The notes under the pieces: generated by a model
Databases searched by the model: none
What the model saw: only the letters and a program-made list of their open reading frames with translations
What the model was told of the DNA's origin: nothing
Translations under genes and position numbers: made by a program
In this document: positions 4,139 through 59,407 of the stretch, in pieces
Layout: each line of letters starts with the position of its first letter
Position numbering within the stretch: the stretch's first letter is position 1
NCBI GenBank assembly: GCA_019338205.1
Contig: GCA_019338205.1_4761.1
Length of the DNA: 64,000 nucleotides
From: a phage
Strand: one strand, 5' to 3'

Positions 4139-4950
4139 TGAAGAAAGCATTAGGTTTAATTCCCTATACTGGCAATAAGGAAAAGCTATTGCCAGGTGTT
4201 AGTAAGTATTTCCCTAAGCACTATAACCGCTTTGTTGATGCCTTTTGTGGCGGCTTGAGCGTGTCTCTGTACGTCGAAGGTGATGTGCTAGCTAATGACT
4301 ATGACCATCGTTTAATTGACGCTTACAAGGCCATTGATGCGTGTCCTGATCCGGTTTCTACAATCAAGCGGATTATTTCCGAGAATGGTTTGTCTCGTGA
4401 TGATAAAGATGCTTACATGGCATTCCGTAAGAAGTATAACGAGAATCCAGATCCGCTATCGCTGTTTGTGTTGATTCAGCATAGTTTTAGCAACATTAAC
4501 CGCCATAATCGCAAAGGTGAATTTAATGCTAACTTTGGTCGCCGGACTTTTAACGAAAACGCGGTAGAGCGTGTCCTGAATTTTAAAGAAGAAAACAAAG
4601 ATGGTCGAATCAATTTTACTTCTGGACGATATGACGAGATCGAGATCTTGCCAGGTGATTTCGTTTATTTGGACCCGCCGTACCTTATCACTTCTGCTGA
4701 ATATAATAAGTTCTGGAGTGACGAGGAAGAGATTAAATTCTATCGGTGGGTAGAATCTATTATGGCGCGTGGTTTTCAGTTTGGTATCAGTAATGTCACG
4801 CATCATAAGGGAAATGTAAATGATCATCTTCTTGACTTTATCAAGCGGAATGATTTAAACTGCGTCCTGTTGAATAAGACCTATTGCCTAGACCGTTCAG
4901 GCGGCAAGTCTTCTGATACGCAAGAAGTTTATGTAACTAACGTAGATTGA
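4138..4950 (+). CDS. dam: DNA N6-adenine methyltransferase (Dam)
   Basis: AdoMet motif DAFCGG and catalytic DPPY motif; size 270 aa like T4 Dam. Confidence 0.8.
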   Translation: MKKALGLIPYTGNKEKLLPGVSKYFPKHYNRFVDAFCGGLSVSLYVEGDVLANDYDHRLIDAYKAIDACPDPVSTIKRIISENGLSRDDKDAYMAFRKKYNENPDPLSLFVLIQHSFSNINRHNRKGEFNANFGRRTFNENAVERVLNFKEENKDGRINFTSGRYDEIEILPGDFVYLDPPYLITSAEYNKFWSDEEEIKFYRWVESIMARGFQFGISNVTHHKGNVNDHLLDFIKRNDLNCVLLNKTYCLDRSGGKSSDTQEVYVTNVD

Positions 4951-4958
4951 GGTATAAT

Positions 4959-5240
4959 ATGGTAGAAATTTTTGGTTTTGAAGGTTACAACTGTAAGTAT
5001 TGCCAGAATGCAAAGCGCCTTTGTGAATCGCGTAAGATCCCTTACATCTACATTCCGGTTAATGATGGTGTGGACGAAAACGGTCGCCCTGTAAAGATTG
5101 ATTCTATCATTGCCGATATTCAGGATCGCGCAGGGGTAGAAGTTATTGCCACCATGCCGCAGATTTTCTATGATGGTGATTATATTGGTGGCTTTGATGA
5201 GTTCCGATCCTTTGTAGTCAAAAACAAGATTCATGGTTAA
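4959..5240 (+). CDS. nrdC: NrdC-like thioredoxin/glutaredoxin
   Basis: CKYC redox motif near N-terminus, ~93 aa, position upstream of gene 49. Confidence 0.65.
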   Translation: MVEIFGFEGYNCKYCQNAKRLCESRKIPYIYIPVNDGVDENGRPVKIDSIIADIQDRAGVEVIATMPQIFYDGDYIGGFDEFRSFVVKNKIHG

Positions 5241-49802: not shown

Positions 49803-50561
49803 ATGAAAAACATTATCGCTGCTATCGTTCTTTCTGCTACTGCTTTCGGTGCTAACGCTGCGTCCTTTGATTGCGCTAAAGCTACTACCAAATCAGAGAA
49901 GTTTATTTGTGCTAATGAGTCTATCTCCGCACTGGACTCTAAACTTCATGAAGTGTATGTTAAGGCTGTTAAGATTGATCCGTCTCTGAAACAAGAGCAA
50001 CGAAACTGGAATAAAACTGTTCGTGATACAATGATCAATATCGGGCAGATTCAGCCACTGGAGGCTGTATACAACGCTCAAATCCAAAACTTGATGAATG
50101 TATTACCTAAAGAAGAAACCGCGTCAGAAAGCGATTCAGAGACTTCTGCGAAGGTTGAAGAAGAACAACCGAAACAGGAAGCAAAAGTGGTAGAAGAACC
50201 GAAGGTCGAAACTTTTACCTATCAATGCACTGTTCGCTATGAGTGGAGTATTAAAGATGGAATTTCTACCAAAATTAAAGAAGCGCCACTGTATGCCAAA
50301 TATGGAAATCAACCAGGAGATCTTAAAGTAACCATTAAAAATGGGAAGATGGTTGATTTTGTATACATTGATGAATACAACGTACACAAAGCAAACGTAC
50401 AAGAAACCGTTATGACTAAAGGCGGGTTTTATAAGAATGTTGGCAAGAAAGATCTATATGAATACTCCGTTTTCGAACCAAACGACGGAACTATTCGATT
50501 TGAAAAACGTCATCCTACATTCGGTGGAGCAATTGATGTAGATCAATACGTTTGCAAGTAA
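49803..50561 (+). CDS. secreted protein with LprI-like architecture (DUF1311-like N-domain + MliC-like C-domain)
   Basis: Signal peptide MKNIIAAIVLSATAFGANA; FDCAKATTKSEKFIC..LDSKLHEVY..QRNWNKTVRD; acidic linker; C-domain with two Cys. Confidence 0.55.
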   Translation: MKNIIAAIVLSATAFGANAASFDCAKATTKSEKFICANESISALDSKLHEVYVKAVKIDPSLKQEQRNWNKTVRDTMINIGQIQPLEAVYNAQIQNLMNVLPKEETASESDSETSAKVEEEQPKQEAKVVEEPKVETFTYQCTVRYEWSIKDGISTKIKEAPLYAKYGNQPGDLKVTIKNGKMVDFVYIDEYNVHKANVQETVMTKGGFYKNVGKKDLYEYSVFEPNDGTIRFEKRHPTFGGAIDVDQYVCK

Positions 50562-52858: not shown

Positions 52859-53515
52859 TTATCTAATCCTTCCGAGGATTCTGGCAGATTGATTGCAAAG
52901 AGTATCTAAATTCTCAATGTCAATATCCGGTTTATTCTTCCATGCAATGGAGATACTACCAGAATAGACATTGTCGAGATTGAATATAGGACAAGAATAC
53001 ATAACCCCTATATCGATACTCTCTAATTTCTTTTCTCTTGATGGAATATACTGGAAATCTTTATCGGTAAAATAGGATTTACCTAAAAGATGCCTACGAT
53101 ATTCTTCACTCGTTTTATTGATAGGGAATCCGCCTAAATTCTTTTCGTCGATCGTATGAGGTAGCTTTCCTTCATATGCCACCAAATCAACAAAATAGTT
53201 TAGGTTTTTCGGACGAAAACTAAAAACAGCAGAAAAATCGGCATCAGCCGACACATGAACTATCTGTAACTGCTCCTGTGCTGCATTATCAAAATTGCGG
53301 TCTTTCTCTACCTGGAGAACGTGAGCATAAGTCTCATAACGAGTCTCTTTATAAAGCGCAAATAACTCGTTTTTACTATAAACGACAAATGCTAATATAG
53401 ACAACACGACGGCAGCAAAAACACGAAGTACGAGCAACTCCGTGCTTTTAGTTGTGAAAATAGCGCGCAGGACATTTGAGATAGCAAAGTCTTTCCCTTT
53501 TTCAGAAACTTGCAT
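52859..53515 (-). CDS. t: holin T
   Basis: 218 aa; QLQIVHVSADADFSAVFSFRPKNLNYFVDLVAYEGKLP, YSCPIFNLDNVYSG, ARILGR match T4 holin t as recalled. Confidence 0.85.
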   Translation of the reverse strand: MQVSEKGKDFAISNVLRAIFTTKSTELLVLRVFAAVVLSILAFVVYSKNELFALYKETRYETYAHVLQVEKDRNFDNAAQEQLQIVHVSADADFSAVFSFRPKNLNYFVDLVAYEGKLPHTIDEKNLGGFPINKTSEEYRRHLLGKSYFTDKDFQYIPSREKKLESIDIGVMYSCPIFNLDNVYSGSISIAWKNKPDIDIENLDTLCNQSARILGRIR

Positions 53516-53548: not shown

Positions 53549-53788
53549 TTATTTAGGTACTTGACTATCACTAGGTTTATCTTGCTCGTTGCTATCTTCT
53601 GACTGATCTTTATTAAACTCCTTATAAAGTTCTTCCACAAAACGATCATCAATTGGCGTATTGGTATAAGCCGCAAGACGACGAGCGCAATAGAAGAAAA
53701 TTTTAGTGAGCATCTTTTCACTAATTAACTTTGACAATAGTTTCATTCCGAAATTAGACAAAGCACCAATGACGATATTATAGACCAT
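53549..53788 (-). CDS. hypothetical small protein upstream of holin
   Basis: 79 aa; AAGGAG RBS; amphipathic N-terminus, acidic C-terminus. Confidence 0.5.
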   Translation of the reverse strand: MVYNIVIGALSNFGMKLLSKLISEKMLTKIFFYCARRLAAYTNTPIDDRFVEELYKEFNKDQSEDSNEQDKPSDSQVPK

Positions 53789-53841: not shown

Positions 53842-54144
53842 TTAACGGTTGCTCAAGCGTCTATAACGAAGATGGGAAATACCCCTGTTTGTAGTTACCG
53901 TGATCGTTACTCCCTGCGGCACAATACAAGAATGGATCTGTCCCCAATCATGACCCTTATGACTTCCAGACACACAGAAGCCATGCAAAAGCAATTCTGA
54001 GTCACCACCGCCACCACCAGAAGAACTAGCACCAAATGAAACCGTACCGAAAGCGTCGGCTGTCCAACCGTTAGGAATATCAAACCATCCCTGATTCGCT
54101 TTACCGGCTTTATTGTCTAAAACTCCATACACCCAATATCCCAT
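53842..54144 (-). CDS. glycine-rich small protein, tandem paralog C
   Basis: MGYWV..GWFDIPNGW..GGGGG; AGGAG RBS; TAATG coupling to upstream paralog. Confidence 0.6.
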   Translation of the reverse strand: MGYWVYGVLDNKAGKANQGWFDIPNGWTADAFGTVSFGASSSGGGGGDSELLLHGFCVSGSHKGHDWGQIHSCIVPQGVTITVTTNRGISHLRYRRLSNR

Positions 54145-54449
54145 TAATGCATTCTCCTAAATTGGAAGTGGTTTAAACTTCCTTTACCAATACTAAAACT
54201 GACAGTAGCGCCAGCACCAACTAAAGAACTTGCTCCCCAACTTCCTGCATTACCAGCGTGATGACCTGATTCGAGAGTACCGTTTACATATAATTCTGCG
54301 TCCAGGTCACCACCGCCACCAACGGCTTCGGCATGAACAGACACAATACCGCATGAATCAGCCACCCAACCATTAGGGATACCAAACCACCCACCATTAG
54401 CATAAATGCTAATAGCATTAGCCATTCTTCCCGCAACCCATCCAGCCAT
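54144..54449 (-). CDS. glycine-rich small protein, tandem paralog B
   Basis: MAGWV..GWFGIPNGW..GGGG; GGAG RBS. Confidence 0.6.
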   Translation of the reverse strand: MAGWVAGRMANAISIYANGGWFGIPNGWVADSCGIVSVHAEAVGGGGDLDAELYVNGTLESGHHAGNAGSWGASSLVGAGATVSFSIGKGSLNHFQFRRMH

Positions 54450-54451
54450 AA

Positions 54452-54748
54452 TTAAAACTCCATAAATTTAAAGTATTCAATACCACCGCCACCACCATGA
54501 CCAAAGGTGACAGTACATCCAGCAGGAACAAACGCATTAACCGTAAATCCCCAATCCCCACCACCACGACGACGCGCGGCGACCACACCGTCAACGGAAA
54601 TATGAATATCACCCCAAACATCACGAGCGGTATGCCGCAAAACGGCAACACCAGCACGACCGGGGACATATCCATTAGGAATGTCAAATACATGCCATTT
54701 TACAGCATCGATTTTAGTTCCTTGTTCATTACTTACCCAATAGCCCAT
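54452..54748 (-). CDS. glycine-rich small protein, tandem paralog A
   Basis: MGYWV..FDIPNGY..GGG..GGGGG; AAGGA RBS after hairpin. Confidence 0.6.
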   Translation of the reverse strand: MGYWVSNEQGTKIDAVKWHVFDIPNGYVPGRAGVAVLRHTARDVWGDIHISVDGVVAARRRGGGDWGFTVNAFVPAGCTVTFGHGGGGGIEYFKFMEF

Positions 54749-54786
54749 TTAAAATCCTTAGCGGGGATTTCTCCCCGCTATTTAAA

Positions 54787-57700
54787 TTAACCAAATAATT
54801 TTGCTTCAATTGCAGCAAGACGATCATGAAGAATTTTATTTTCTTCTTTCAGACGGTTATTTTCTTCTTTAAGAAGTGCGATTTCTTCGGTGTGTTCGTT
54901 GATTGCCGCAGTATTTAAACCAATTACACCGTTATAGTTCAAACGAAGTAGAGCTTCGCCATCAGGGTCACCTTCAACTAATTCTGGTAAAATAGCTTGA
55001 ACTTCTTGAGCAATTAAACCGGCGTTAGGTTCCCATTTCTGATTGCCTTCTTCATCTAGGCCTCGCTTCTGCATATAAGTGTAACCATTAATTTTGGAAA
55101 GCCTCTCAGAAGCATTTTCAAATTTAACAAGGTCTTTTTTAACACGAATATCAGAACGAACATAAACATCGCGGACATATGTGGAATAGGAATCGCTTTG
55201 TTGGATTAAATGACCAAAAGAAATAATAGCTCTTCCGTGTTCAGTCCACAGAGCACCAGTGGTATCCCAAAGACCTTCATGGAGATGGTAAGCGGACGAC
55301 CATGAAGCAATATGCATTCCATTTGCAACCATATTGATTCGGCCGTCACCACCATGAACTAATCCAGTATCATTATCACCAATAACAACACATGCGCCTG
55401 TCCATACAGGGTCACCTCCACCAGCTGATACTCTTACTCCAGCTTTAACCATGTCAGGAACGTACATGTTTCCATTATGGTGGAATTCGAAGACAGCTTG
55501 CGGATCAGAACCATTTTCCTGGTTACCTACACGAATAATACCTTGTGCCCAGTTATTAGGAATGCGTCGCATACCAAAATCAACGCCAGAAAAATATCCT
55601 TCGTTAGTAATACCAGATTTTCCTTTAATAATAGGGTAATAGCAGTCATTACCGACATAACCAAAATCCACAAATATAGGAGCTTCTTGACGCCATTGAT
55701 TTCCCCAATCGCCGGCCTGGTGTGCGATCCATTGTGTACCGTTTATATGAAGGCGGTCTCTATTAAAATTAAATGTTCCTTGTCCTTGAGGAGAAAGCGA
55801 TATTTCGCCGTTATTTGTTATGTATACAGCGCCTTGTGTAATGTAACTGTAAAAGCCTAGACCATTGTCACCACCGCCTTTGCCTATATACCAGTTACCT
55901 GTACCGTCTATGTCACCACGAATATGCAAAGAATTACTAGCAGTTGTTGATAATACAATAGAATCACCCGGACGTTTAATAATCAATCTACCTTCGGATT
56001 CAACTTCACCAAAAAATTTAGTCTTAATTGCACCAGTCGCTAAAGTACGTTCAGTGGAAAAATGAACGCCTTTGCTATCTTCTAACTGGATGATGTTATC
56101 ACGAGCATTATTACTATCACCCCAATGGTTAAATTTAAAATAATCTCGTGATCCTAAACGTCCGGCGTCAAAAATCATCAAGCCTTTCATGTTAATATCA
56201 CCACCAAAAAATGCGGTGAGAGAATCACATTTTAATTTTAAAACGTTAGCACGACTAGTACCACCTAAAGAAACATCACCAGTGCTAAATTCATAACTGA
56301 AAGGTCTATTTGTATTAAAGTTTCCATCTTTATCATTTTCGTCGGTGGAAAGAATATAAAGACGCGAGCTATCAGCACGGAAAATTGTACCAAAATTTCC
56401 GCCATACATACGGAAAGCATTAGCTGGGCGGAATTTAACTTCTGCGTTAAAAGTTGTAGTTGATTTAAACGTGGTTGCAGCACCGAAGTTAACTGCACCA
56501 TTAAAATCTTGTTGAGCTGTCCATGTATGGCGACCATCTTCAAGAACAACACGACGAACTCTGCAACTTCTATTTCCCGGATTACCAGCAACACGAACGA
56601 CAAAATAACGGTAGTTATTTTGTGTCACAGTACCGCGCCAAACCTGAACAGTACGCCCTGTGCTAGTGTGTTCGCTAGGACCGACGGAAAACAGAATCAA
56701 GTTTTCATCAATCGTGCCCCAATCCATATTTTCTGGCATGTTCTTTATTTTGTTCAAAGGAACGCTAAACATACTACCGGGGACAAAATCAAAAGTTTGC
56801 CAATCTAACTCTGTTAATTTAGATTTAACACCACCCATACCCAAAGTAATTGGCATAGAATAGGACGTATATACTTCGTACCAATTGCCCCAGATGTTAT
56901 TTGTCATCGCACGTTCAAACACGCGAGATCGCGTAGTTTCACCCGTTCCTGCGGTAGTGAAACGTTGGAAAATAGCGCCGCCGGAAGCACGCTGTTTAAC
57001 CTCAAGCAATCCGGTCATCTCAACCGGAACACCTTCTGCAACTGGACGGTTAATAACGGCATCAGTGCCTAAAATATTATATAAGCCAGGAGAACGAAAA
57101 TTATTAAGATCCCCGTCATAAAATGTGCTGGGAGTAACCATGCCTACTTGTTGCCACGGTCCCCAATTCGGAGCTTCTGGATCCCATGCACCAGCAAGAC
57201 AACGAACATATACAACACCCATTCGGGTAGTATAACGTTGCGTGCGAGAATAGTTACCACCTTCATAAATTTCTAAAAGACCTTGCGCGAGACCACCTTC
57301 TTCTGGGTAATTTCGAGAAAATGATGCAATGGAACTTGAACTATTTCGCCATAACCCAAAATGAGAAGCATCACCTAAAGTATTCAAGTCTAGTGTAGTT
57401 GATAGTGGACGTGTGCCAGTTTGAATATTGCGCCACGGACCCCATGGACCATCTACGCCATTCCATTTCGCGGACAAAGAACGGATATAAACGTTACCAG
57501 ACCGAACCGTATAACGCTGAGTGCCAGCAAATTGACCAGCCACAAATACTTCTAATACACCTACAGCATTCTCTTCTGGGAATTTATTTGCTGGCTGCGC
57601 ATTTGTTGAAGTTGATTTAGACCAAACGCCAGTAAATTTACCAGTAGGTCCATAATTATCTAAATTTGCATCAGATGGCAACTCACCGCGAAAGTGTCCC

Positions 57701-57849
57701 AAAGTAATTACATTATTGCTGTCATCTTTTGTATATAGTTCTCGATCCGCTAGGTTAATAGCAAGTTCACCCGGAGTTAGAATATTCGCATCCGGCTTGC
57801 GACCTGCCGTACTTGTTCTTTTAAATTGGATTCTCTGTAAATCTGCCAT
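54787..57849 (-). CDS. 37: long tail fibre distal subunit gp37 with C-terminal intramolecular chaperone-like domain
   Basis: N-terminus MADLQRIQFKRTSTAG..GELAINL like T4 gp37; C-terminus SDIRVKKDL..GYTYMQK..GLIAQEV..coiled coil resembles peptidase S74-type chaperone domains. Confidence 0.8.
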   Translation of the reverse strand: MADLQRIQFKRTSTAGRKPDANILTPGELAINLADRELYTKDDSNNVITLGHFRGELPSDANLDNYGPTGKFTGVWSKSTSTNAQPANKFPEENAVGVLEVFVAGQFAGTQRYTVRSGNVYIRSLSAKWNGVDGPWGPWRNIQTGTRPLSTTLDLNTLGDASHFGLWRNSSSSIASFSRNYPEEGGLAQGLLEIYEGGNYSRTQRYTTRMGVVYVRCLAGAWDPEAPNWGPWQQVGMVTPSTFYDGDLNNFRSPGLYNILGTDAVINRPVAEGVPVEMTGLLEVKQRASGGAIFQRFTTAGTGETTRSRVFERAMTNNIWGNWYEVYTSYSMPITLGMGGVKSKLTELDWQTFDFVPGSMFSVPLNKIKNMPENMDWGTIDENLILFSVGPSEHTSTGRTVQVWRGTVTQNNYRYFVVRVAGNPGNRSCRVRRVVLEDGRHTWTAQQDFNGAVNFGAATTFKSTTTFNAEVKFRPANAFRMYGGNFGTIFRADSSRLYILSTDENDKDGNFNTNRPFSYEFSTGDVSLGGTSRANVLKLKCDSLTAFFGGDINMKGLMIFDAGRLGSRDYFKFNHWGDSNNARDNIIQLEDSKGVHFSTERTLATGAIKTKFFGEVESEGRLIIKRPGDSIVLSTTASNSLHIRGDIDGTGNWYIGKGGGDNGLGFYSYITQGAVYITNNGEISLSPQGQGTFNFNRDRLHINGTQWIAHQAGDWGNQWRQEAPIFVDFGYVGNDCYYPIIKGKSGITNEGYFSGVDFGMRRIPNNWAQGIIRVGNQENGSDPQAVFEFHHNGNMYVPDMVKAGVRVSAGGGDPVWTGACVVIGDNDTGLVHGGDGRINMVANGMHIASWSSAYHLHEGLWDTTGALWTEHGRAIISFGHLIQQSDSYSTYVRDVYVRSDIRVKKDLVKFENASERLSKINGYTYMQKRGLDEEGNQKWEPNAGLIAQEVQAILPELVEGDPDGEALLRLNYNGVIGLNTAAINEHTEEIALLKEENNRLKEENKILHDRLAAIEAKLFG

Positions 57850-57916: not shown

Positions 57917-59407
57917 TTAGAAAGTACCAAAATCAATTACCGCATTAAGCGGAACCGCGCCAACTTCGGCAGGGGTAGGTTTGTGTCCTTCGTGGTATAA
58001 TTCAAATGTATCGGTGTCCTGAGTATTGTTGCGTGATTTAACGAAAATAATTTTAGAATCATGTGTGATGCCTAGTTTCTCGTGCGCTTTAATATCACTA
58101 ACACGATGAATCATTGCTGTGCCATCTAAGCTATTAAGTCCAGCGTAGCAATTATCACCATTATAGTTAGCTTTTGCGGTACGAACGCCGTTTGCAGCGG
58201 GAACTGTCAAAGCACCTCTCATGGTATCGCCAGTAACATTAACATAGCGAGCATCAGCCAATTTACGGTTATCTACATAGTTCCATGCAGTCCATGATTC
58301 ATTAGAACAAGAACGCCAGCACATCGGATGATCAATAGATTCAGGATAGTATACCTGAACAATTCGACGAGTACCGACCGCATCTTCTGGGCGATATACC
58401 ATCAAAACGCCGTTATAATAGCTATCAGACGGTTTATTAGTACCTGATCCAGCATTTTCCACACGATAGATACCGCGATTAATAAGAGTGTTCCAATCAA
58501 CGTTTCCAATGATTGTTGGATTTGCTACCATTGATTTTTTCTCAAAGTAGCTCAAACGAACCAATTCATTAGGACCAGCAGGATCGTTTGTCGCCAACAT
58601 TCTAGGCGCTTGCAAGTTACCTTCCATAATATCACCAGCACGTTTAACCTGTGCATCATTGGTGACATTGCCTAGCCCAACATCGGCTTTAGTTGGTTTA
58701 TTGTTGGTGTGATAAAAACGACCTTCTCTGCCATTAACAAAAATGGTAGGCTCATCTTTACTTCGGAAGACCAACGTATCAAGAACGTTACCATAATAGA
58801 TCTTAGTCGCATCAAAATTAATTAAATCACGTTCCCTTGCAATTAATTTCGAATCAACCGATAGTTTAACAGTGACAGTGTTTAAATTATATGTTCCTGT
58901 GAGAGTATCACCGCGACGAGACACCAAATCTAAATCATTATTCGTTGGTTTATTAACAGGGCTATAGACGCGTTGACCTGTGTCTTTAATGGTTGTCCCT
59001 TCGATAGTCCCTTTAGACTTAAATTCGCCCGTTGTGGTGTCAATATACGCCATAATAACGCCATCACGGGCATTAACAAAGCCGATTGACTTCCATGAAT
59101 GCAAACCCCAGCTTACGCCGTCAAAATTAGCAGCGTCGCTCTGACCTTTAAAGATACCATTCTTTTTGGTTTCTCCAGCCGATGCGCTACCTACGCTTAA
59201 ACCTTCCTCGAAATGAACTTGCTTTTGAAATGTGCCACCTTCGGATGCACTAACAGCATCAAAATCGGTAGCCGAAGGTCTATCAAAAGCGGTATAGATT
59301 TTATGACCTTTGTAGAAAAGCTGATCCCCCGCTGGCTGGATCGTCAAGTTTCCTTGCGTCCAAATGGGAGATCCACCTACAGTAGATCCATATTTCAAAT
59401 CTGCCAT
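57917..59407 (-). CDS. 36: long tail fibre subunit gp36 (extended, 496 aa)
   Basis: N-terminus MADLKYGSTVGGSPIWTQGN..PAGD like T4 gp36; synteny. Confidence 0.7.
   Translation of the reverse strand: MADLKYGSTVGGSPIWTQGNLTIQPAGDQLFYKGHKIYTAFDRPSATDFDAVSASEGGTFQKQVHFEEGLSVGSASAGETKKNGIFKGQSDAANFDGVSWGLHSWKSIGFVNARDGVIMAYIDTTTGEFKSKGTIEGTTIKDTGQRVYSPVNKPTNNDLDLVSRRGDTLTGTYNLNTVTVKLSVDSKLIARERDLINFDATKIYYGNVLDTLVFRSKDEPTIFVNGREGRFYHTNNKPTKADVGLGNVTNDAQVKRAGDIMEGNLQAPRMLATNDPAGPNELVRLSYFEKKSMVANPTIIGNVDWNTLINRGIYRVENAGSGTNKPSDSYYNGVLMVYRPEDAVGTRRIVQVYYPESIDHPMCWRSCSNESWTAWNYVDNRKLADARYVNVTGDTMRGALTVPAANGVRTAKANYNGDNCYAGLNSLDGTAMIHRVSDIKAHEKLGITHDSKIIFVKSRNNTQDTDTFELYHEGHKPTPAEVGAVPLNAVIDFGTF

Follow-up and report, generated by a model that had tools for sequence, protein, structure and literature searches.

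The adhesin gp38 is the main host-range determinant used for predicting and engineering receptor specificity in T-even-like therapeutic phages. In Salmonella phage S16, gp37, the distal subunit of the long tail fibre, is reported to lose its last 113 residues by autocleavage at S^SDRRIKK, so that the gp38 dock becomes exposed (PMC7917993); gp38 attaches by three helices, each tipped by a tryptophan, that enter three equivalent pockets in gp37 (PMC6851490). The needles of T4-type fibres carry 7-9 HxH motifs (PMC6563267). In T-even phages of the T2/S16 type, whose adhesin is gp38, a C-terminal Peptidase S74 domain is standard, and its occurrence in the phage studied here is therefore in itself no novelty. 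The less ordinary part of the locus is the replacement of gp38 by three small related genes, whose products may make up a fibre tip of a new kind.

The window analysed here is a stretch of 64,000 nucleotides from a Krischvirus (an RB49-like phage). Over the interval 54787-55260 the plus strand is full of stop codons, and the minus strand encodes the last 157 codons and the stop codon of an open reading frame (ORF) of 1020 aa. An earlier note on this DNA had read the interval as a chaperone domain at the end of gp37, and the strings that it quoted (SDIRVKKDLVKF, INGYTYMQK, NAGLIAQEVQAILPELV and the LKEEN repeats) are all present in the minus-strand ORF. The features of the locus are as follows.

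54787..57849, minus strand: gp37 homologue, long tail fibre distal subunit, 1020 aa, precursor of 112.8 kDa (ORF list)
55156..55398, minus strand: S16-like mature fibre tip, residues ~818-898, ending in ...YVRDVYVR, the predicted docking platform after release of the module (6f45_A alignment)
54790..55155, minus strand: intramolecular chaperone / Peptidase_S74 module, residues 899-1020, 122 aa, 13.7 kDa (Pfam PF13884)
55138..55155, minus strand: SDIRVK motif, putative scissile site and Ser-Lys dyad (Ser899 at 55153-55155, Lys904 at 55138-55140)
54859..54900, minus strand: LKEENNR/LKEENKI, imperfect 21-nt duplication in the terminal helix (DNA alignment and protein comparison)
54759..54780, minus strand: GC-rich palindromic stem-loop lying between gp37 and the AGGA and ATG of ORF A (consensus scan and sequence)
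54452..54748, minus strand: ORF A, first paralogue in the gp38 slot, 98 aa, 10.6 kDa, 18% Gly, ending in ...FKFMEF
54144..54449, minus strand: ORF B, second paralogue, 101 aa, modelled as an N-terminal helix and a C1q/TNF-like jelly roll
53842..54144, minus strand: ORF C, third paralogue, 100 aa, whose start overlaps the stop of B (TAATG)

The long ORF matched PHROG 1699, 'long tail fiber protein distal subunit', with E = 2.7e-187. Its residues 1-798 are 86% identical to gp37 of Krischvirus G2494, and residues 459-519 match the Pfam family Gp34_trimer. A single HxH motif was found in the 1020 residues, which sets this gp37 apart from the T4 type, as the earlier note had held for the tip; it is a distal subunit of the T2/S16 type without a T4-type HxH needle. 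In a search with the whole ORF, residues 818-1006 aligned to residues 25-201 of 6f45_A (E = 1.7e-40), and within this match the tip residues 818-898 paired with residues 25-92. By this alignment, the distal domain is homologous to the triangular and interdigitated domains of S16 gp37. A gp37 of the S16/T2 type implies a mature fibre of about 99 kDa and a receptor-binding part that is to be sought in a separate tip protein.

The chaperone module makes up the last 122 of the 1020 residues of this PHROG 'long tail fiber distal subunit' protein. PF13884 matched residues 899-958 over profile positions 1-57 of 58 (E = 2.4e-12; 47.4 bits, the curated cut-off being 22 bits). The C-terminal stretch of 157 aa, searched alone against PDB, matched 6f45_A, the S16 long tail fibre distal subunit, with E = 1.4e-34, and it also matched the autoprocessing domain of MYRF (7dc3); matches of this strength lie well outside what chance would give. 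A search with a profile of such chaperone modules yielded 6f45_A (6.5e-45), tail fibre 8jov (1.3e-7), MYRF 7dc3 (1.6e-7) and the GA-1 neck appendage (gp12) 3gud (9.5e-4); in the same search T5 pb1 stayed below significance (E = 0.52) and no endosialidase came up by sequence. The S74-like character suspected from the letters was thus borne out, and we regard membership of the Peptidase S74 / intramolecular chaperone family as almost certain. The likeness to endosialidases and T5 fibres holds at the level of this family, but the closest relative is S16 gp37. The module also lies inside the interval that had been assigned to it, but the first 35 residues of that interval belong to the mature fibre tip and the module starts at Ser899.

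The SDIRVK motif at its start was aligned with the S16 cleavage site S^SDRRIKK and with SDERHK of GA-1, and S1, D2, R4 and K6 of the motif are invariant among six fibre chaperone modules, including that of S16. The catalytic role of the Ser and Lys residues comes from published endosialidase work. An AlphaFold2 monomer model of the 157-aa stretch, built on a 10-sequence alignment, had a pLDDT of 52.5, with the terminal ~58 residues predicted as helical and confident only in the last ~30 (pLDDT 80-91); the fold identity of the module rests on its 54% sequence identity to the S16 module in 6F45_A. Given this close homology to S16 gp37, the module very probably autocleaves, with the cut predicted between Arg898 and Ser899. 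The same homology supports the earlier proposal that the fibre trimerises with the help of its own chaperone and then releases the C-terminal module.

The heptad-like LKEEN repeats that had been noticed are present, but they amount to just one imperfect 21-nt duplication, too short and too imperfect to be called as a tandem repeat by TRF. The duplication was revealed by DNA alignment with G2248, UPWr_E1, G37-3 and the prophage L004, and it is missing from the closest relatives, G2248 and UPWr_E1. It is situated at a recombination joint, where the S16-like chaperone module meets a 3' end common to all triplet-carrying loci. Within the protein, it falls in the terminal coiled coil at a distance from the active site.

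The three ORFs that follow gp37 take the place of gp38. In G2494, gp38 (266 aa) is located exactly where the window, G2248, UPWr_E1 and G37-3 carry A, B and C. The most productive point of the earlier note was its suggestion that the chaperone domain alters the possible role of the small glycine-rich proteins encoded downstream, which occupy just this gp38 position. Searches with tblastn using gp38 of G2494 and S16 gave no match in the window and no match (E <= 1) in the complete genome of G2248, which is the closest complete genome to the window. An hhalign comparison of the A/B/C family with gp38 returned a probability of 0.1%, indicating no relationship, and on this ground a split gp38, with A, B and C as its fragments, was rejected as their origin. 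S16-like and RB49-like (...DVYIR) fibre tips were each found both with gp38 and with A-B-C, as expected if gp38 and A-B-C use one dock. ORFs B and C are 40% identical (E = 5e-15). The gap between A and B is 2 nt, B and C overlap by 1 nt, and the three genes are translationally coupled. The stem-loop ahead of ORF A is possibly a partial terminator or an RNA-stabilising hairpin; a 'putative terminator' is annotated at the equivalent place in G2248.

The A/B/C family is rare and unannotated: a set of 1.84 billion proteins contains about 15 representatives. No family of known function was matched by A, B or C in Pfam, NCBIfam and PHROG, including the Pfam C1q/TNF profiles. The triplet is undescribed in the literature searched on the carrier phages and on Krischvirus gp37/gp38. 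In every locus retrieved (at least 10 distinct ones, from Krischvirus phages, prophages of E. coli and Salmonella, and divergent metagenomic contigs), an S74-ended fibre is directly followed by A, B and C in that order. The orthologues of ORF A hold the same position in all loci, and the division into three orthologous groups can be followed down to ~25-30% identity. Around the glycine runs, the loops differ from phage to phage. The isolated phage KFS-EC has a deleted, frameshifted A/C fusion and no B, so some hosts may not require the triplet, or the record may be misassembled.

The triplet-bearing prophages of E. coli and Salmonella are siphovirus-like and unrelated to the Krischvirus phages; they have a GpJ tail tip and a portal like that of lambda. 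For the capsid of the donor prophage, no close relative was found among isolated phages, the best being DCP80 at 45% identity. The triplet was not found among PLSDB plasmids, for which reason an SSU5-like phage-plasmid was dropped as a candidate donor. All 26 triplet copies in complete E. coli genomes are chromosomal. The GC content over A and B is 0.44-0.50 versus ~0.36-0.42 in most flanking 300-bp windows, with values of up to 0.46 in gp37. Glycine codons explain this rise and it was set aside as a sign of transfer.

The AlphaFold model of ORF B (pLDDT 85) shows a C1q/TNF-like jelly roll behind an N-terminal helix, the helix being the low-confidence part (pLDDT 55-59). The modelled jelly roll can be superimposed on gC1q/TNF domains with moderate scores; its best structural neighbours are gC1q/TNF-like trimeric heads and viral fibre knobs. 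In C1q, too, the heterotrimer is made of three paralogues encoded in tandem, which is the arrangement put forward here for the triplet. A, B and C each start with G-x-W-[VIL] at the head of the predicted helix. The tryptophan is invariant in 21 A, B and C sequences from the three orthologous groups and from E. coli and Salmonella elements, and is replaced by Y, L, M or N in some distant members of the family.

The best explanation of these observations, to which we assign a probability of about 0.6, is that an S16-type gp37 releases its S74 module by self-cleavage and is capped by A, B and C in place of gp38. The C-terminal module of 122 residues would nucleate trimerisation of the beta-helical tip and then cut between Arg898 and Ser899 with a putative dyad of Ser899 and Lys904 at +5, giving a mature gp37 of 99 kDa and a 13.7-kDa fragment that would not be expected in the virion. 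Cleavage would uncover the distal face of the fibre, which is the gp38 dock in S16-type phages. The exchange of gp38 for the A-B-C cassette, which also occurs in prophages of E. coli and Salmonella, would have taken place by recombination within the terminal helix of the chaperone module. A, B and C would contribute one copy each to a C1q/TNF-like heterotrimeric knob, whose three N-terminal Trp helices would plug into three symmetry-related pockets of the gp37 tip and whose glycine-rich variable loops would bind the receptor. The odds that A, B and C act as a fibre-tip adhesin are about even, and their association as a 1:1:1 heterotrimer is somewhat less probable than that. The heterotrimeric cap, we infer, may dock where gp38 does.

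The weakest competitor concerns the module itself, which could be a degenerate remnant that folds without cleaving and stays on as the distal end of the fibre. The extra heptad of the window module, absent from its relatives, could be taken in this sense, but the duplication, being part of the terminal coiled coil, is remote from the active site; Ser899, Asp900, Arg902 and Lys904 are conserved, the match spans the full Pfam profile and the 54% identical S16 module does cleave, all of which makes a non-cleaving remnant very improbable. A more serious alternative is that A, B and C are no virion components at all but fibre assembly factors, similar to Tfa or to T4 gp38/gp57A, or unrelated moron genes, with the processed gp37 tip binding the receptor. 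Small genes just downstream of fibre genes very often encode chaperones, such as Tfa of Mu and P2 and gp38 of T4; no adhesin signature can be recognised in A, B and C, and KFS-EC appears to tolerate a disrupted triplet. Against this, the fibre has a chaperone module of its own, so that a second, three-protein system would be redundant, and the triplet occupies exactly the slot of a structural adhesin, gp38, that is itself gone from the genome. The predicted fold resembles C1q, TNF and viral fibre knobs and is unlike known fibre chaperones, and the glycine-run loops vary between phages as receptor-binding loops do. We therefore consider a role outside the virion unlikely.

Slightly less likely again is an arrangement in which A, B and C each form a homotrimeric cap, so that the fibres carry alternative tips with three receptor specificities. 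Most C1q/TNF-like and fibre-knob domains are homotrimers, three identical Trp helices would suit three identical gp37 pockets, and the paralogues differ most in the putative loops. However, independent caps should vary in number, whereas every intact locus has exactly three genes, one from each group and in the same order. This order is constant down to ~25% identity and the genes are translationally coupled; obligate hetero-oligomers, C1q A/B/C among them, typically show such a pattern.

Returning to the self-released S74 module and the A-B-C cap, a fuller version of this reading can be offered, though more tentatively than the heterotrimer as such. A, B and C would constitute a previously undescribed split adhesin of miniature C1q/TNF-like proteins, a 1:1:1 knob that docks only after the S74 self-cleavage, with one Trp helix per gp37 pocket, as a three-fold-symmetric counterpart of gp38, which is monomeric and asymmetric. 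The cassette and the last ~20 codons of the fibre gene would travel together between lytic, T4-like Krischvirus phages and the siphovirus-like prophages found in E. coli and Salmonella, and the cassette would be interchangeable with gp38 on two types of tip. Should the adhesin indeed consist of A, B and C, they would provide a compact module for retargeting, made of three ~10-kDa proteins, a natural case of one dock that takes both monomeric and trimeric caps, and evidence that adhesins pass between siphoviruses that are temperate and myoviruses that are lytic. Since the window phage, G2248, UPWr_E1 and G37-3 are without gp38, receptor prediction based on gp38 is inapplicable to them.

Among the known systems, the S16/T2-type tip (PDB 6F45; Dunne et al. 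2018, as summarised in PMC6851490 and PMC7917993) has a homologous gp37 tip and chaperone module. The two share the cleavage motif (S)SDxRxKK and the gene order from the fibre to the tip protein or proteins and the holin. The S16-type phages have a monomeric gp38 of 250-266 aa with an N-terminal attachment domain bearing three Trp and a polyglycine sandwich of glycine-rich motifs and hypervariable segments, whereas the window has three paralogues of ~100 aa with a predicted C1q-like jelly roll. Krischvirus vB_EcoM_G2494 and the window have the same flanks, namely gp36, a 79-aa ORF and the holin t, and gp37 of G2494 is likewise S74-ended (SDSRLK...). In G2494, however, the chaperone module comes straight after the shaft (...GNGSFSDVYIR) and is followed by gp38, with no S16-like tip segment in between; the window differs by the extra S16-like tip domain, the S16-like chaperone module and the A-B-C cassette.

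K1F endosialidase, the GA-1/phi29 neck appendage, T5 pb1 and MYRF belong to the same Pfam family as the window module and share with it the N-terminal S-D-x-R-x-K, the G-[LI]-I-A-Q core and a terminal helix. The relationship to these modules is only distant, and the window module serves a T-even gp37 beta-helix. T4 gp37 has the same position in the fibre and the same N-terminal joint to gp36, but it relies on an iron-binding HxH array and on the external chaperones gp38 and gp57A, whereas the window fibre has one HxH motif, no T4-type gp38 and a folding that is predicted to be self-chaperoned. For the A-B-C proteins, the trimeric heads closest to the ORF B model were those of C1q A/B/C, C1QL, cerebellin, collagen VIII/X NC1 and BclA, along with viral fibre knobs. 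No similarity to these proteins exists in sequence, and the domain is smaller, with ~80 versus ~130 residues (given as about 25% smaller). It also lacks a fused stalk of the collagen or fibre kind and has just a short N-terminal helix.

The segment 54787-55260 encodes, on the minus strand, the final 157 codons and the stop codon of a 1020-aa ORF. We assigned this ORF to the distal subunit of the long tail fibre (gp37) since it matches PHROG 1699 (E=2.7e-187), contains a Gp34_trimer domain (Pfam) at residues 459-519 and is 86% identical over residues 1-798 to gp37 of the Krischvirus vB_EcoM_G2494. The features of the locus and its two flanking genes are:

57917-59407, gp36, flanking the gp37 locus
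54787-57849, minus strand, gp37 homologue
54790-55155, minus strand, chaperone module proper
54452-54748, minus strand, ORF A
54144-54449, minus strand, ORF B
53842-54144, minus strand, ORF C
52859-53515, holin t, flanking the gp37 locus

The N-terminal part of gp37 (residues ~57-335, ~56845-57681, minus strand) contains tandem repeats of ~90 aa and matches PHROG 4618, "tail collar fiber protein"; repeats 1 and 2 are 37.5% identical (E=1e-17) and a third copy is weaker (E=0.026). Several "tail fiber domain-containing proteins" of ~170 aa (P0052-P0054), called as separate short genes on contigs of phage-genome size (~166 kb), are 87-93% identical to the gp37 C-terminus, which suggests that some relatives have split or frameshifted gp37 genes.

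The C-terminus of gp37 matches the entire Peptidase_S74 profile of Pfam (residues 899-958, E=2.4e-12, 47.4 bits against a cut-off of 22). The closest solved structure is the gp37 tip of Salmonella phage S16 (6F45 chain A), with E=1.7e-40 (residues 818-1006) and, when only the segment 54787-55260 is used, E=1.4e-34. The S, D, R and K of the SDIRVK motif (Ser899 at 55153-55155, Lys904 at 55138-55140) are invariant in the aligned chaperone modules. Given these matches and invariant residues, the S74 domain is, at the sequence level, real and far above chance. Six fibre chaperone modules were combined into a profile, which reached the tail fibre 8jov (E=1.3e-7), the MYRF autoprocessing domain 7dc3 (E=1.6e-7) and the neck appendage module of GA-1 (3gud, E=9.5e-4); its match to T5 pb1 was not significant (E=0.52). 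The earlier note was thus correct in its observation of a chaperone-like end and essentially correct in interpreting it, with some refinements: the segment contains the module but its first 35 residues belong to the mature tip; the proposed likeness to endosialidase and T5 modules holds at the level of the Peptidase_S74 family, with pb1 itself below significance and the S16 tip nearest; and the "LKEEN repeats" are present but amount to one imperfect 21-nt duplication that is missing in the closest relatives.

For S16, the last 113 residues of gp37 are described as an intramolecular chaperone (PMC7917993), with autocleavage at DLNVS^SDRRIKK after trimerisation uncovering the docking surface for gp38, the separately encoded tip adhesin. 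The sequence DVYVR^SDIRVKK in the gp37 studied here aligns with this cleavage site and the two modules are 54% identical, so that by homology a 112.8-kDa precursor should be processed to a 99.1-kDa product and a freed 13.7-kDa fragment. An inactive S74 domain is unlikely, the motif being intact.

The closest relatives of the region are the RB49-like Krischvirus phages vB_EcoM_G2248 and UPWr_E1, with G37-3 further off; no record in the phage collection represents the same phage. In a usual Krischvirus genome such as that of G2494, gp37 is directly followed by gp38 (an adhesin of 266 aa), after which come a conserved 79-aa ORF and the holin; in the window, as in G2248, UPWr_E1 and G37-3, the place of gp38 is taken by three ORFs of ~100 aa (A, B and C). 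Searches with tblastn using G2494 and S16 gp38 as queries did not find gp38 in the window, nor in the complete G2248 genome at E<=1, indicating that gp38 is replaced rather than relocated. In some Krischvirus phages gp38 is reported to lie far from gp37 or not beside the holin (bioRxiv 10.64898/2026.04.02.716166; PMC12032242), and adhesin placement in this group may be more fluid than in the loci examined here. The 79-aa ORF (53549-53788, minus strand; PHROG 402, function unknown), located between the adhesin slot and holin t, is kept in every Krischvirus genome examined, with gp38 or with A-B-C; its N-terminal half is hydrophobic and its tail acidic. At 49803-50561 (plus strand) lies a 252-aa ORF, annotated as hypothetical in G2248 and in Escherichia virus KFS-EC. 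Its N-terminus shows an apparent signal peptide (MKNIIAAIVLSATAFGANA) and a motif that contains Cys, and the product resembles an accessory protein of the secreted or periplasmic kind.

A, B and C are paralogs (B and C, 40% identity, E=5e-15; A to B and C, 28-33% identity, E=2e-7) with no match to a Pfam or NCBIfam family or to a PHROG family of known function. When 1.84 billion representative proteins were searched exhaustively with a profile, only about 15 small family members emerged. The triplet was present in 3 intact and 1 degenerate of 50,697 phage records and in 24 of 5,426 complete E. coli genomes, where its location was chromosomal without exception and its annotation in each case "hypothetical protein (x3)". 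Three orthologous groups make up the family, each recognisable by its final residues (...FKFMEF, ...FKFRRMH or ...LRYRRL). In every locus retrieved from Krischvirus phages, E. coli and Salmonella prophages and divergent metagenomic contigs, the order is A-B-C immediately after a fibre gene ending in Peptidase_S74; at one prophage locus (L007) the third gene was merely left uncalled. The 2-nt gap between A and B and the overlap of B and C in TAATG suggest coupled, equimolar translation.

The prophages carrying the triplet combine a lambda-like portal with a protease-capsid fusion and a GpJ tail tip; for their capsid, isolated phages offer no close relative (best identity 45%). Here the S74 fibre and triplet are located between the head and tail genes (L004, 3231-7662, and equivalents L005-L011 and L020), and ahead of them is encoded a protein of 277 aa. 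The C-terminus of this protein (..EEKPTPAEIEAVSIHDRIDFGEY) mimics that of the window gp36 (..HKPTPAEVGAVPLNAVIDFGTF), a T-even-like gp36/gp37 joint inside a siphovirus-like element. The triplet of KFS-EC (L018, MH560358.1; locus coordinates 4447-4969, minus strand) is degenerate: residues 1-89 of A are joined via a glycine run to mid C, B is deleted, and a frameshift puts the remainder of C (HDWGQIHSC...RLSNR) in a different frame. Either the deletion is real and the phage viable, the triplet then being dispensable on its host, or the record contains an assembly error.

Fibre tips of the RB49-like type (...GNGxFxDVYIR^SD) are paired with gp38 in G2494, and in G37-3, KFS-EC and the prophages with A-B-C; for S16-like tips the partner is gp38 in S16 and A-B-C in the window, G2248 and UPWr_E1. 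Such free mixing is as expected if gp38 and the triplet use the same dock. Regardless of the upstream chaperone type, the fibre gene ends in ~60 nt (EENK[LI]L[RH][DE]RLAAIEAKLFG) that are near-identical in all triplet-bearing loci, a similarity that marks the recombination joint, at which the 21-nt duplication is exactly located.

The AlphaFold2 model of B (29-sequence alignment, pLDDT 85.2, pTM 0.71) has an N-terminal helix of low confidence (residues 2-13) followed by a seven-strand beta sandwich. The top 14 Foldseek matches in the PDB were all gC1q domains (E from 2e-3), and its neighbours among predicted viral structures were tail-fibre knobs and proteins with C1q domains or collagen repeats. 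This similarity, of moderate strength, has no counterpart in sequence, and we describe the predicted fold as a C1q/TNF-like jelly roll, not as family membership. In nature this fold forms trimers; the A, B and C chains of C1q, encoded in tandem, make up a heterotrimer.

Each of the three phage proteins A, B and C starts with M-[GA]-x-W-[VIL], where a predicted helix begins. The Trp is invariant in 21 of 21 sequences compared (three groups, E. coli and Salmonella elements), including B proteins with N-terminal extensions; some distant family members lack it. In S16, monomeric gp38 joins the gp37 trimer through a three-helix bundle; a conserved Trp at the tip of each helix inserts into one of the three hydrophobic pockets of gp37, which are equivalent by symmetry (PMC6851490). 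The N-terminus of S16 gp38 reads ..GPWVGSS..QNWASL..PFWISS... Between gp38 and A, B or C, hhalign found no relation. Solely on the strength of genome comparisons and a predicted structure, we propose that A, B and C are virion tip proteins. The simplest fit to the three-gene rule, the coupled translation and the trimer-forming fold would be a 1:1:1 heterotrimeric knob, which would offer three Trp helices to the three gp37 pockets after departure of the chaperone module. The variable residues concentrate near glycine runs, and the surrounding loops would be candidates for receptor binding. That A, B and C are instead non-structural assembly factors is less likely, since the fibre carries its own chaperone and the slot belongs to a structural adhesin, and the invariance of the three-gene set makes it less likely that each forms a homotrimeric alternative cap.

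The single HxH motif of this gp37 contrasts with the 7-9 motifs of T4-type needles (PMC6563267), so the distinction from T4 drawn in the earlier note was correct. The S74 domain itself is a further example of the well-known S16/T2 architecture; such ends are standard among T-even phages with a gp38 adhesin, and gp37 of G2494 likewise ends in an S74 module (SDSRLKINKE...). What sets the locus apart from the ordinary is that gp38 has given way to three paralogs, a rare and unannotated set that is strictly linked to S74-processed fibres in unrelated phage lineages, which suggests, on comparative and modelling evidence only, a variant of the system in which a processed gp37 is combined with a separate tip adhesin.
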